Source: an uncultured Acidobacteriota bacterium
Lineage (GTDB): Bacteria; Acidobacteriota; Vicinamibacteria; Fen-336
Reading direction: 5' to 3'
Length of the DNA stretch: 64,000 nt
Assembly: GCA_963700695.1 (NCBI GenBank)
Contig: CAVOYO010000012.1
Location: 100,393-164,392, forward strand
The notes under the pieces were generated by a model, which saw only the letters and a list, made by a program, of their open reading frames with translations, was not told the DNA's origin and did not search any database. Positions 3,105-46,621 of this stretch are shown piece by piece. Each line of letters begins with the position of its first letter. Position 1 is the first letter of the stretch. Made by a program: the position numbers and the translations under genes.

Positions 3105-3323
3105 GTCGGGAATCCTCGCGAGAGATCAGGGTCCAGGCCCCGCGGCGGCGGGGGCCCAACACAGGAATCTACCTCATCGGCAGCTCTCGCGTACATCCCT
3201 CGCGGCGGGCATCCACCACGCGGAAGCGTGACGACCCGCACTGGTATACTGCCCGACGCCGTGGGACATGGCGCAAGGCCCGGCGTCGTCCGTATTCAAC
3301 CAGTTGAACCAAGGGGCAACGAT

Positions 3324-23994: not shown

Positions 23995-24216
23995 TCAGCG
24001 TCCCTTTGGGAAGATCGCCATGAGAAGGCCGATGCCCGCGACGCCGGCACAAGCGTACCGCGCCAGGTCCCACCGGCCGGCCTCCCGCTCGAGTCCTTCG
24101 CTGATGCTCACGCCCGCGGGCACCGGCTCGTGCTTCTCGAGCTGCTGAGAGGCGTACATGAAGCCCAGGATGCCCAGGAGCAGCATGATCCCGCCGAAGT
24201 TCCGCATGGGGCTCAT
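23995..24216 (-). CDS. Small hydrophobic membrane protein (2 TM), upstream of LOG
   Basis: MSPMRNFGGIMLLLGILGFMYASQQ...YACAGVAGIGLLMAIFPKGR; 11-nt gap to LOG start. Confidence 0.45.
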   Translation of the reverse strand: MSPMRNFGGIMLLLGILGFMYASQQLEKHEPVPAGVSISEGLEREAGRWDLARYACAGVAGIGLLMAIFPKGR

Positions 24217-24232
24217 GGTACACCGGAGCCTC

Positions 24233-24238
24233 TATAAT
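24233..24238 (+). promoter_or_regulatory. Perfect -10 hexamer TATAAT 6 nt upstream of the Grx-like ATG (leaderless transcript likely)
   Basis: tctTATAATggggccATG; no SD between box and start. Confidence 0.3.
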
Positions 24239-24244
24239 GGGGCC

Positions 24245-24466
24245 ATGTCAGAGGTGCGCAGCGTCCTCATCTTCGGCAAGGACACGTGACCCCACACCAC
24301 CGAGGCCCGGGAGGCCTACGCGGGGAAGGGCTACACGGTCGACTATCGCGACGTGACGGCGTCGCCCACGGCCCTTGACGAAATGCTCGAGCACTCGGGT
24401 GGCCGACGCAGCGTGCCGGTCATCGTCGACGAGGGCCGCGTCGAGATCGGGTACGGAGGCACCTGA
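24245..24466 (+). CDS. Glutaredoxin/NrdH-like thioredoxin-fold protein with in-frame TGA at the active-site Cys position (candidate selenoprotein, UPHT motif)
   Basis: Translation MSEVRSVLIFGKDT-[TGA 24287-24289]-PHTTEAREAYAGKGYTVDYRDV...RRSVPVIVDEGRVEIGYGGT. Full Grx topology with TGA exactly where CPYC Cys1 sits; GC-rich hairpin aggcc-cggga-ggcct starts 13 nt after TGA. Not in ORF track because of the TGA. Confidence 0.5.
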
Positions 24467-24524
24467 GGGGTGTAGGTTCCGGGGCCGGTCCGGCCCCGAC
24501 GCCACTCGACCTCAGAGCCGAAGC

Positions 24525-25577
24525 GTGAGCCCCGCCTCCTTTCCCACGTCCGGTCATGCCCGCTGGCGCCGGGGGGTCCTCGTGCCCGGCGTGGCCGCCC
24601 TGCTCATCCTCGGCTCCTTCTGGGCCCATCCCCGTGAGGACGGTCTCGCCCTGGACGTGCAGCCCCTGCCCCTCAACCCCTCGGAGCCCGAGCAGACGGT
24701 GGTGGGTCCCCTTCGCTTCCGCGGTGGCCTCTGGCTCCGCTCGGCCGACCCCCGATTCGGGGGGCTCTCGGACGTGCGGGTGGCTCCGGACGGGTCGCAG
24801 CTGCTCGCCGTGTCGGACTGCGGGCGCGGCTTCGTGGCGATGCTCGTCCACGACTCGAGCGGGGACCTGGCCGACCTGCGATCCCCCCGGCTGGTCGATC
24901 TCGTCGGGCCGGACGGGGGCCCCTTGATGAGCCGGGCCGAGCGGGATGCCGAGAGCCTTGCGTTCGAGGGCGACGACGGCCTCCTGATCGGCTTCGAGGG
25001 TCGGCCGCGGATCTGGCGGTACGCGCGGTCGCCACCGTTCGCCGGGCCTGCCGAGCCCCGGCCCGGGCCTCCCATCGACGGGGCGTGCCGCGGGAACCGG
25101 AGCCTCGAGACGCTCGTGGATCTCGAGGGCGGGCAGCTCTTCGTGGCGTGTGAGGCCGCCACCGGCAGCCAGGGCCCGGTGCCGGCCTGGGTGGGGTCGG
25201 GGGAGAGCTGGACCGCTCGCTCCTATCCGTTGGGAGGCGAAGGGCTGGGGGGCTTCTTCACCCCGACCGCCGCCGCCCGTCTCCCGGGAGGCGACGTCGT
25301 GGTGCTCGAGCGGCGTTTCCCGCCGCTCGAGGTGCGGCTGATGAGGCTCACGAAGGCCGACCTGGAGGGCACCGGCCCCCTCGCCCCGTACGAGGTCGCC
25401 CGTCTCTCCCCGCCGCTGTCGGTCGACAACTTCGAGGGCATCGACGTCCGTACGGACCCCTCGGGCGTGACGTTGCTCTACCTGCTCTCCGACGACAACG
25501 GCTGCTCGAAGCGGGCGGGCGTCGTCCCCCCCCGCTTCCAGCGCACGCTTCTGCTGCTCTTCGAGCTGACCGGCTGA
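24525..25577 (+). CDS. Secreted esterase-like-activity-of-phytase family (beta-propeller phytase-like) protein
   Basis: Signal-like N-term (ARWRRGVLVPGVAALLILGSFWA); body matches phytase-like esterase family composition (GLSDVRVAPDGSQLLAVSD...). GTG start at 24525 inferred; start uncertain. Confidence 0.5.
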   Translation: MSPASFPTSGHARWRRGVLVPGVAALLILGSFWAHPREDGLALDVQPLPLNPSEPEQTVVGPLRFRGGLWLRSADPRFGGLSDVRVAPDGSQLLAVSDCGRGFVAMLVHDSSGDLADLRSPRLVDLVGPDGGPLMSRAERDAESLAFEGDDGLLIGFEGRPRIWRYARSPPFAGPAEPRPGPPIDGACRGNRSLETLVDLEGGQLFVACEAATGSQGPVPAWVGSGESWTARSYPLGGEGLGGFFTPTAAARLPGGDVVVLERRFPPLEVRLMRLTKADLEGTGPLAPYEVARLSPPLSVDNFEGIDVRTDPSGVTLLYLLSDDNGCSKRAGVVPPRFQRTLLLLFELTG

Positions 25578-26661: not shown

Positions 26662-27760
26662 ATGACGACCGCGAAGCGCGTTCACAATTTCGGGGCGGGC
26701 CCGGCGGCGCTTCCGCTGCCGGTGCTGGAGCAGGTGCAGGCGGAGCTTCTCGACCACGGCGGCACGGGCATGTCCGTGATGGAGCTGAGCCACCGCTCGG
26801 CCGCGTTCGGAGAGGTGATCGAGCAGGCCGAGGCCGACCTGCGGGTCCTTCTCGGCCTGTCCTCGGACTACGCCGTCCTCTTTCTACAAGGGGGCGCCTC
26901 GCTGCAGTTCGCGATGGTGCCGGCGAATCTGCGGCCGGCCGGGGCCTCCGCCGACTACGTGCTGACCGGGAACTGGTCGAGGGCGGCCATCAAGGAGGCG
27001 GCCAAGGGAGGCAGAGTCCGCACGGTCGGCTCGACCGAGCCCTCCGGCTTCGACCGCATCCCCGCCCAGGGGGAGCTCGACTTCGACCCGCAGGCCGCCT
27101 ACGCCCACTTCACGTCCAACAACACGATATACGGGACCCAGTGGCCGACCGAGCCGGAGGCCCCGTCCGGGCGTGCCGCTCGTGTGCGACGCCTCTTCCG
27201 ACGCGCTGAGCCGACCCATCGACATCCGCCGCTACGGCGTGCTCTACGCCGGGGCCCAGAAGAACCTCGGACCCGCCGGGATCGCGGTGGTCGTGGTGCG
27301 CCAGGAGCTCCTGGAGCGGACACCGGGAGGGCTGCCCGCGCTCATGGACTACCGGCTCATGGCCGAGAAGCGCTCCCTCTACAACACCCCGCCCACCTTC
27401 ACCGTGTACGTTGTGGGCCGCGTGTTGAGGTGGCTCAGGGAGCTGGGGGGACTGGCCGAGATCGCAAAGCGAAACGAGGCGAAAGCGGCGCTTCTCTATG
27501 ACGCGATCGACGCGAGCGGCGGCTTCTACCGCGGTCACGCGCGGAAGGAGAGCCGCTCCCGGATGAACGTCACATTCCGCCTCCCAACCGAGGACCTCGA
27601 GGAGCATTTTCTGAAGGAGGCGGGGCCCGCCGACCTCGCCGGCCTCAAGGGCCACCGCTCCGTGGGGGGGCTGCGGGCCTCGATCTACAACGCCTGTCCG
27701 ATCGAATCGGTGCGAGCGCTCGTGGACTTCATGGCGGACTTCAAGAAGCGCCGCGGCTGA
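26662..27760 (+). CDS. serC: Phosphoserine aminotransferase SerC, frame broken once near 27165 (extra G in GGG run)
   Basis: NFGAGPAALPLPVLEQ...MELSHRS N-term in frame 1. PLVCDASSDALSRPID...GAQKNLGPAG and the C-terminus are in frame 2 (ORF 27173..27760). Removing one g from ccgtccgggcgtgccg restores EPEAPSGVPLVCD. Confidence 0.8.
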
Positions 27761-44671: not shown

Positions 44672-46621
44672 TCAGGAGCAGCCGCAGCCGCTCCCGCAGC
44701 CTCCCTGGTGGGCCTGCGGGCCCGCCCGCTGGGTCGCCTTCTCGGTCGCCGCGCCCTGGCCGTTGCCGTTGGCCGGGGCAGCGTGCTGGTGGCCGTCTCC
44801 GTTCCCGTTGCCGCTCTCCACGGACACCACCGGCAGCTTGCGCTTGAGGGCGTTCGGAAGCTCGACGGGGCGGTTCCCGGCGTAGATCTGGTGGCGTCCC
44901 TTCTCTGCGAACCAGTCCTTGGTCGTGGCCACCTGGCGCATCTCCTCGATGATGTTCCGCCAGCCCACCCCGGTGTTGTAGGCGCAGAAGGAGATCTCGC
45001 CCTCCTGGGTCCCGTAGGGGATGACGCACATCTCGGTCCGGCGGAAGTCGTAGTTCCACAGGTCCTGGAACCACATGCTCAGGATCGAGGTCATGCGCCA
45101 GTCACTCTTCTTTCCGGAGTCCTCGCCCTTGACCGTGCCCCCCATCTTCCCGTTGAAGAGCCGCAGCATCTCCATGGGGGTCATCCCCTTAGGTGCCTTC
45201 TCCTTGTCGAAGTTCCGGAGGAACGAGAGGCCGACCTGAGTGAGCGTGAGCGTCCTCCCCCGGGCGGAGTCGACGATCACGTCGAGGTCGCGGAAGAACT
45301 GGTCGAGGTTGAAGAACGACATGAGCGTGGCCCACTCGCCGGTCTTGTGGTTGGCCACCATCATCGTGGCCGCCCCGCAGTTGGGGTGGCAGCCGCAGTT
45401 GAGCTGACCGAAGTCGGACTCGGGCCCCTTCATGTGGTCGGCGAGGGCGGCGAAGGCGGTCGAGGCCCCCAGCGGATACCAGTCGCGGTAGGGGTCGATC
45501 TTGCCACCGTAGTGCTTCGCCAGGTCGTGGGCCAGGTGCGAGGTCGTGTAGCGCTGCTTCAGCCGGTCCTCGTCGCTGATCTCCTCGTCCCGGCCGGTGA
45601 ACGACACCGGCTGGAAGGCCGGGCCGCCCATCTTGTCGTGGTTCTTCAGGCAGAAGTCGAAGATCGGCCCCACCATGTGGTTGTTGACGCCGTTGACGAC
45701 CGTCACTACTGGGGTGATACGAATCCCGGCAGCGGCGATGTTGTCGATGGCGATCTTCCGGACGTCGAACAGGTTCGTGATGTGGCGGTGCGAGTTGGCC
45801 TCGTTGGTGGTCCCGTCGAACTGCAGGTACACCATGTCGAGCCCCGCCTCCTTCGCCTGGACGGCGAACTCGGGCTCGAGGGCGAAGCGGATCCCGTTCG
45901 TCGCGGCCTGGATGAGCTTGTAGCCCACCTTCTTCGCGTAGGCGCAGGCCTCGAGGAAGTGGGGCGACATCGTGGGCTCGCCCCCGGAGTACTGCACCAC
46001 CATCTGCCGCCGGGGCTTGAAGGAGATCGAGTCGTCCAGGATCTTCTTGATCTCGTCGAGCGTCAGCTCGTGCACGTACCCCACCTGGTTGGCGTCCATG
46101 AAGCAGGGGTTGCACATCATGTTGCATCGATTCGTGAGGTCGACGGTCAGGACGGCCCCGCGACCGTAGCGGACGTTCGAGGTGCCGTGGCGGTGCACGA
46201 GCTTGTCGCCGAACGTGCGGAAGTCACGGCCCGGGTAGCGGCTCTCGATGACCTTGTCGAACTCGACGTCGATGGAGCGGATGTCGTCAAACGTGCCGTG
46301 CTGGGGGCAGGTCTTGGAGACCCACAGCTCCTTGCCCTTCTCGTAGAACGTGGCCTTGATCTCGCCGATGTTGCCGTCGACGAGGTCCTTGAGGTCGCGC
46401 TCCCCGTTCAGGATCTGCCTCCGGGTCTCGATGACGCACTGGGGACAGAGCGAGTCGGTCTCTCGGGGGTAGCCGAGGGGAGGCCGCGTCCGCTCGTGCG
46501 ATTTCGGTATCGGCCCCGGCGCCCAGTCCGGCTCGACCGAGCGCCCCTCGGGGACACGGGCGTTGACCGACTGAAAGGCCCGCCAGGCGAGATCGCCGAT
46601 CTGCTGCAGCGTCGTCTCCAT
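44672..46621 (-). CDS. Large radical SAM protein with N-terminal rubredoxin/zinc-ribbon-like CxxC...CxxH motif and Gly/Cys-rich C-terminal tail
   Basis: VDLTNRCNMMCNPCF = CxxxCxxC radical-SAM cluster motif; N-term CPQC...(26)...CPQHG; internal NCGCHPNCG; C-term GGCGSGCGCS; 649 aa. Confidence 0.8.
   Translation of the reverse strand: METTLQQIGDLAWRAFQSVNARVPEGRSVEPDWAPGPIPKSHERTRPPLGYPRETDSLCPQCVIETRRQILNGERDLKDLVDGNIGEIKATFYEKGKELWVSKTCPQHGTFDDIRSIDVEFDKVIESRYPGRDFRTFGDKLVHRHGTSNVRYGRGAVLTVDLTNRCNMMCNPCFMDANQVGYVHELTLDEIKKILDDSISFKPRRQMVVQYSGGEPTMSPHFLEACAYAKKVGYKLIQAATNGIRFALEPEFAVQAKEAGLDMVYLQFDGTTNEANSHRHITNLFDVRKIAIDNIAAAGIRITPVVTVVNGVNNHMVGPIFDFCLKNHDKMGGPAFQPVSFTGRDEEISDEDRLKQRYTTSHLAHDLAKHYGGKIDPYRDWYPLGASTAFAALADHMKGPESDFGQLNCGCHPNCGAATMMVANHKTGEWATLMSFFNLDQFFRDLDVIVDSARGRTLTLTQVGLSFLRNFDKEKAPKGMTPMEMLRLFNGKMGGTVKGEDSGKKSDWRMTSILSMWFQDLWNYDFRRTEMCVIPYGTQEGEISFCAYNTGVGWRNIIEEMRQVATTKDWFAEKGRHQIYAGNRPVELPNALKRKLPVVSVESGNGNGDGHQHAAPANGNGQGAATEKATQRAGPQAHQGGCGSGCGCS

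Follow-up and report, generated by a model that had tools for sequence, protein, structure and literature searches.

A member of UXX-star selenoprotein family 1 with two very probable selenocysteine codons in an acidobacterial-type genome

In the 64-kb stretch of DNA analysed here in full (the window), a short glutaredoxin-like reading frame carries a TGA codon where glutaredoxins encode the first cysteine of the CxxC site, which raises the question of whether this codon is decoded as selenocysteine (Sec) and, if it is, where the gene ends. An earlier reading of the letters alone (the sequence-only reading) had proposed a candidate selenoprotein running from ATG 24245 through TGA 24287-24289 to a terminal TGA at 24464 (73 codons). 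The frame through the first TGA was present in the sequence as claimed. The proposed end was not upheld: the TGA at 24464-24466 was assigned as a second Sec codon, directly followed by GGG GTG TAG (24467-24475). The locus at 24245-24475 very probably encodes a 76-residue glutaredoxin-fold selenoprotein of UXX-star selenoprotein family 1 with two selenocysteines, an assessment that includes the account of its decoding given below.

Reading frame and family assignment

The coordinates of the gene and of its presumed signals are collected in Table 1. The two TGA codons are separated by 58 codons. In the mechanical list of open reading frames, the gene was represented only by a fragment of 43 aa (24158-24289) that stops at the first TGA; the full frame was absent from it, as had been pointed out. 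No other credible candidate for TGA readthrough was found in the 64-kb window.

Table 1. Features of the selenoprotein gene, in positions of the window
Feature	Position	Strand	Remarks
TATAAT -10-like box	24233..24238	+	6 nt upstream of ATG 24245; candidate promoter of a leaderless mRNA
Complete CDS	24245..24475	+	76 codons, two UGA read as Sec, then TAG; predicted product MSEVRSVLIFGKDT-U-PHTTEAREAYAGKGYTVDYRDVTASPTALDEMLEHSGGRRSVPVIVDEGRVEIGYGGT-U-GV
Sec codon 1 (UGA)	24287..24289	+	Motif U-P-H-T (codons 15-18); position of the first Cys of glutaredoxin CxxC
SECIS element 1	24301..24320	+	Within the coding region; fold, bSECIS criteria and comparison of Sec-type with Cys-type loci
Sec codon 2 (UGA)	24464..24466	+	Three codons from the end: T-U-G-V-stop
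True stop TAG	24473..24475	+	Read from the sequence
SECIS element 2	24480..24498	+	3' UTR; 8-bp stem CGGGGCCG/CGGCCCCG with loop GUC, or 7 bp with loop GGUCC

Profile searches were performed with the product translated so that Cys replaced both internal stops. The NCBIfam model NF041114 ('UXX-star selenoprotein family 1') was matched with 114.4 bits against a curated equivalog cutoff of 72, over profile positions 1-70 of 70 and residues 7-76, whereas a product ending at TGA 24464 gave 105.2 bits over profile positions 1-67 of 70. Because the model is matched end to end only with readthrough to TAG 24473-24475, the gene was taken to be 24245-24475, with 76 codons and two Sec. The Uxx-star subfamily model NF041212 was also passed (84.6 bits, cutoff 66), as was the Glutaredoxin domain model PF00462 (39.3 bits, cutoff 22.9), in keeping with the glutaredoxin alignment suggested earlier. 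Solved glutaredoxins were matched by sequence with E values of 1e-4 to 1e-3, covering only residues 4-69. Scores fell below the cutoffs of NF041211 (family 2; 41 vs 100), NF047338 (family 3; 54 vs 97), NF045501 (HUGP/GUXX-star fusion; 43 vs 325) and Grx3 (TIGR02181; 36.4 bits vs 90), and the cutoffs of the YruB and mycoredoxin models were also missed. The label NrdH-like, which the sequence-only reading had added, had to be dropped (TIGR02194, 15.8 bits vs a cutoff of 85.75). The profile score, the UxxT site, the two Sec positions, the C-terminal U-x-x-stop and a glutaredoxin-type fold recognised by sequence all place the product in UXX-star family 1.

The UXX-star families are reportedly described in a 2025 paper by Haft and Tolstoy. 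The text of the GOS paper does not describe UXX-star family 1 by name. In a 2026 review (PMC13188914), the family is listed as 'Distant Grx-like protein 1', with UxxT and 2 Sec and with reference to Zhang & Gladyshev 2008, and a sister family 2 is listed with a single Sec (GxGU). The gene is thus a real member of a curated, published family whose definition already includes the second Sec; it is not new, and as a known family it is unlikely to surprise a selenoprotein specialist.

Public entries of the family are mostly truncated at the C-terminal TGA, reduced to 42-56-aa fragments that start past the first TGA, or mistranslated with W or G where Sec is encoded. Among the best 150 representatives, 95 end at the truncation point, 7 end in W-x-x and 6 in Cys-x-x. 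Misannotated entries include P0001, P0012, P0030, P0035, P0043, P0045, P0057, P0077, P0079, P0125 and P0158, two of which (P0057 and P0077) extend beyond the true stop. The expectation that ordinary gene callers miss or truncate such a gene was borne out by the 95 relatives that stop at TGA. Since the family is mostly truncated or mistranslated in public collections, a scan that flags such genes is useful even for a known family, and the correct product for annotation is one with two Sec rather than one.

Conservation of the two TGA codons

Related loci were fetched from three metagenome-assembled genomes (MAGs; two labelled Acidobacteria/Vicinamibacteria and one labelled Hyphomicrobium) and from metagenomes (80 loci), and tallies were made over 72 unique loci. 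Four orthologs (L001-L004) share the architecture of the window gene. Both TGA codons, the G-V-TAG tail and both hairpins are retained in the Acidobacteria/Vicinamibacteria MAGs, and one MAG locus (L001) shares gene order with the window, the nucleotide identity being about 85 %.

At the first site, the codon is TGA in 32, TGC in 24 and TGT in 14 of 70 unique relatives, all of which encode the motif [U/C]-P-[Y/H/F]-T. The proposal that orthologs be compared for Cys or TGA at the codon at 24287 was thereby answered with both states (TGC or TGT in 38 relatives, TGA in 32), and downstream coding was conserved in the 32 TGA loci rather than lost behind an ordinary stop. The form U-P-H-T, with His instead of Tyr, is a minority (6 of 32 Sec-type loci), and the window gene lies in the double-Sec clade. 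The distribution of Sec follows clades, and at least two changes of state are needed on a neighbour-joining tree.

At the second site, all 72 unique loci have TGA, then exactly two sense codons, then a stop (TGA in 36, TAG in 25, TAA in 11). In 66 of these tails the two codons specify Gly-Val; they do so by 10 synonymous pairs, which differ at third positions only, a signature of translated sequence.

An exhaustive profile search of 1.8 billion representatives yielded 130 relatives at E <= 1e-10. It included an all-Cys protein (P0027) with C-G-Y-T at the active site and T-C-G-V at the end, which scores 108 bits in NF041114, and a further Cys form (P0099) scoring 75 bits; P0027, P0099, P0111 and P0116 end in C-x-x, and the tails of Cys homologs read TCGV, YCGI, YCAV and SCSF. 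With Cys relatives at site 1 (the 38 TGC/TGT loci) and at site 2 (C-x-x-end), Cys/Sec pairs are available for each position, and C/C, C/U and U/U members (site 1/site 2) are all represented. The proposition that the C-terminal Sec is never replaced by Cys had fitted the 72 loci and was rejected when the Cys-x-x-end forms were recovered by the exhaustive search.

SECIS hairpins and decoding

The hairpin aggcc-cggga-ggcct, described earlier at 24303-24317 and 13 nt past the first UGA, was present as claimed. Its core stem pairs 24303-24307 with 24313-24317 around the loop CGGGA (24308-24312), and two further pairs are formed with a bulged A. The 5 (+2) bp stem, the G within the first two loop positions and the 18 nt from UGA to loop lie within the published bSECIS model (PMC13188914), which specifies an apical loop of 3-9 nt, an upper stem of 4-16 bp, G in the first two loop positions and a UGA-loop distance of 16-37 nt. 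Core pairs number 4.46 of 5 in Sec-type loci vs 1.69 of 5 in Cys-type loci (p = 1.4e-10), and the codons beneath the hairpin read E-A-R-E-A in the former and A-A-R-D-H in the latter. Compensatory variants (ACGCC/GGCGT and AGCT/AGCT) occur in relatives. Covariation is weak (0.134 vs 0.091 in shuffles, reached by 1/500) because the hairpin sits in conserved coding sequence. The SECIS-like reading of this hairpin thus holds, both by the bSECIS model and by its restriction to Sec-type loci. Together with family membership and the interchange of TGA, TGC and TGT among relatives, this restriction bears out the placement of Sec at the first Cys of CxxC in U-P-H-T.

The second hairpin was found downstream of the second TGA. 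The arms CGGGGCCG and CGGCCCCG begin 13 nt past UGA 24464-24466, the same spacing as that of the first hairpin, and the stem of 7-8 bp, the loop of 3-5 nt with G in its first two positions and the UGA-to-loop distance of 20-21 nt also lie within the bSECIS model. A stem of at least 6 bp follows site 2 in 67 of 68 unique loci, starting 9-14 nt past the UGA in 59. These stems comprise 49 distinct 5' arms with a G-first apical loop, and a U-run occurs in only 6 of the 68 loci. In a 20-row seed alignment of one geometry, 91.3 % of cells were paired vs 75.1 % in shuffles, with a covariation score of 0.505 vs 0.184 (0/500). In 42 loci aligned with a covariance model, at a stricter E-value that excluded minus-strand matches of the palindromic hairpin, 91.6 % of cells were paired vs 68.8 %, double-sided changes numbered 66 vs 19.4, and the covariation score was 0.588 vs 0.159 (0/500), with slid controls reaching at most 0.142. 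MAFFT with RNAalifold gave no consensus structure for the 68 sequences downstream of the second UGA, in which the stems fall out of register through differences in spacer and loop length. Rfam returned no family, only meaningless miRNA and IRES matches, when the gathering threshold was applied to the whole window and a limit of E <= 10 to 24200-24560. Single-sequence folding energies did not differ significantly from those of shuffles for either hairpin (z = -0.9 for SECIS element 1 and -1.8 for SECIS element 2). As the DNA is 69 % GC, the comparison of loci was relied on and folding energy was not used as evidence.

These data also bear on a reading with Sec at the first UGA only, in which translation ends at TGA 24464 and the hairpin at 24480-24498 serves as a terminator or other 3' element. 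TGA is the commonest stop in the window, and a GC-rich hairpin right after a stop codon does resemble a terminator. Against this, the two sense codons and stop persist past the TGA in every locus with third-position variation only, the NF041114 model itself extends over the tail residues, and relatives with Cys at site 2 keep an identical x-x-end. As for the hairpin, 62 of 68 loci show no U-run, its distance from the UGA is fixed and its apical loop starts with G; a scan for terminators found nothing. A single-Sec product is therefore considered highly improbable, and the two-Sec product is retained.

The alternatives named by the sequence-only reading, a Cys-to-stop pseudogene or a sequencing or assembly error at 24287-24289, gain some colour from the nearby serC gene, whose split between two frames at about 27170-27500 suggests that the sequence may hold errors or decayed genes. 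They are refuted by the occurrence of TGA in 32 independent unique loci from different samples with conserved downstream coding, by the presence of the first hairpin in TGA loci and its absence from Cys-type loci, and by a GC3 of about 0.9 on both sides of the TGA, so that they are left with a negligible probability. The serC gene (phosphoserine transaminase, 26662-27760, + strand) itself is split over two overlapping frames, 26662-27501 encoding the N-terminal part and 27173-27760 matching SerC profile positions 166-357 with 283 bits; the split is a frameshift, either real or an assembly error. Reassignment of TGA to Trp or Gly in this organism, which would account for the W (P0001, P0012, P0045 and others) or G (P0125) that database relatives carry at TGA positions, has scarcely any probability. 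TGA terminates 32 of the 55 genes predicted in the window and, 6 nt after the internal TGA, 36 of 72 family genes; relatives encode Cys at each of the two positions, neither Trp nor Gly; and the entries with W or G are artefacts of gene calling. As the commonest ordinary stop in the window, TGA indicates a code that is not reassigned.

The Sec machinery was also searched for. No tRNA-Sec, and no tRNA at all, was found in the 64-kb window, and neither selA, selB nor selD was found among 30 ORFs scanned, including every predicted window gene of SelA, SelB or SelD size; this absence is uninformative either way because 64 kb is a small part of a genome.

In the decoding proposed for the two-Sec gene, the mRNA would probably start at or beside ATG 24245 as a leaderless transcript driven by the TATAAT. 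The first UGA would be recoded as Sec through the hairpin in the E-A-R-E-A codons, and the second through the hairpin in the 3' UTR, after which Gly-Val would be added and translation would terminate at TAG 24473.

Half of the family (36 of 72 loci) has the arrangement UGA-NNN-NNN-UGA, a Sec-UGA followed by a stop-UGA, ahead of a single hairpin (e.g., L008 1711-1722 and L009 1723-1734), and the window gene uses TAG rather than TGA as its stop after the second Sec codon. With a Sec-UGA and a stop-UGA 9 nt apart and one hairpin, decoding must tell identical codons apart, and the discrimination is presumably set by the distance to the SECIS. The 3'-UTR SECIS combined with UGA-N6-UGA is a compact setting in which to ask how the spacing of SelB selects the UGA to be recoded.

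Gene start, neighbourhood and proposed redox chemistry

The TATAAT reported 6 nt before the ATG was found at that position. Of 64 unique loci, 18 have a perfect TATAAT 5-7 nt before the start and no Shine-Dalgarno sequence; most of them belong to the double-Sec clade, and the box persists although the flanks have diverged. Elsewhere, several loci have TAnnnT and other lineages have GGAGG. The conserved TATAAT supports a putative leaderless transcript of the selenoprotein gene. The earlier suggestion of a leaderless mRNA is thus strengthened by the recurrence of TATAAT without a Shine-Dalgarno sequence. A consensus promoter scan at the locus found no -35/-10 pair, so the promoter function of TATAAT is treated as putative.

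A divergent ORF at 23995-24220 (- strand) encodes a small two-TM protein upstream of the LOG/TIGR00730 gene; it is 73 aa long or, more likely, 70 aa from a second ATG at 24207. Ahead of ATG 24207, at a distance of 7 nt, there is a conserved ATGGTA (24220-24215; TACCAT on the minus strand). The two-TM gene, which may be leaderless as well, stands back to back with the selenoprotein TATAAT, about 12 nt away.

The neighbours of the selenoprotein gene in the window are LOG, the small TM protein and a phytase-like esterase; in other lineages they are ThyX-like, 4HBT thioesterase, LolA-like or amidohydrolase genes. No neighbourhood is conserved across the family, and no functional clue was obtained from it. 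Relatives with Cys at site 1 and a Sec tail usually adjoin a Thy1/ThyX-like gene of about 540 aa, often with a 4HBT thioesterase (19 metagenome loci, e.g., L057 and L033; L084 6001-7907). This neighbour is absent from the double-Sec clade and from the window, where no ThyX-like gene was found, and it may be a functional link for the Cys-site-1 clade only. The phytase-like esterase gene (PF13449, 24525-25577, + strand), directly downstream of the selenoprotein gene in the window, is absent from the syntenic MAG locus L001, in which only its last 36 nt or so remain (3262-3297, 94 % identity), pointing to a recent deletion or insertion of about 1.1 kb.

At some distance in the window, a radical SAM protein of 649 aa (44672-46621, - strand) had tetraether lipid synthase Tes (NF045702) as its best match, although the 294 bits fall short of the cutoff of 450; it also matched the radical SAM (seleno)protein TrsS with 199 bits. 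Its product may be a homolog of a membrane-spanning-lipid synthase in an acidobacterial-type genome.

The second Cys of CxxC is always Thr in the family, and the protein ends with G-G-T-U-G-V, 4 residues past Gly-Gly. Alignments with PDB glutaredoxins stop at residues 61-69, and those chains run on past GG into the last helix. With Thr always in place of the resolving Cys and the end only 4 residues past GG, the C-terminal Sec becomes a good candidate partner of the active-site Sec. We propose tentatively, from these sequence features, that the two could form a redox pair, which would cycle between a diselenide and two selenols; Cys-site-1 relatives would form a selenenylsulfide and all-Cys relatives a disulfide. 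The fuller proposal, in which an intramolecular U15-U74 diselenide would be the working redox centre of a natural clade of bacterial diselenide oxidoreductases, translated from a leaderless mRNA that carries two SECIS elements, the second wholly in the 3' UTR, is put forward as a somewhat more doubtful possibility. With its C/C, C/U and U/U versions, the family lends itself to a comparison of disulfide, selenenylsulfide and diselenide chemistry in a naturally occurring series.

The main competitor accepts the same decoding and has the two Sec bind a metal or metalloid (e.g., Hg, As or Cu) or act on another substrate, so that they form no intramolecular redox pair. Metal binding is suggested in the review (PMC13188914), in whose table sister families are tied to metal or metalloid genes. 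However, neither the window nor the related loci examined have metal-resistance genes next to this one, and both the fold and the site [U/C]-P-Y/H-T belong to thiol-disulfide oxidoreductases. On this evidence the metal or other-substrate role is considered unlikely.

Mammalian thioredoxin reductase ends in G-C-U-G, with a redox-active Sec on a C-terminal tail, and SelL has a UxxU diselenide. SelL appears as ref. 40 in PMC2398784. The likeness of the window protein to these two is a works-like analogy only, consisting of a flexible tail that carries Sec two or three residues before the C-terminus, and of a possible Se-Se or Se-S bond as redox centre; their folds are unrelated and their SECIS elements eukaryotic, no homology is claimed, and a diselenide in the window protein is one that we infer. 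NrdH redoxin (TIGR02194) shares small size and a glutaredoxin-like fold with the window protein, which differs from it in lacking a CVQC-type dithiol site and in having no ribonucleotide reductase genes nearby. The classical glutaredoxins (Grx3, TIGR02181; 3GRX/1FOV, 2KLX and 2KHP) and the Clostridium selenoprotein glutaredoxin (UxxC) share with it the fold, the nucleophile at the N-terminus of helix 1, the cis-Pro 'VP' and the GG; unlike the classical glutaredoxins, the window protein has Thr for the second Cys of CxxC, no C-terminal helix, a Sec tail and a second Sec. The proteins of NF041212, NF041211, NF047338 and NF045501 have in common with it a short glutaredoxin-like fold ending in G-U-x-x-stop, and from UXX-star family 1 itself (NF041114) the window gene differs in nothing that defines the family.
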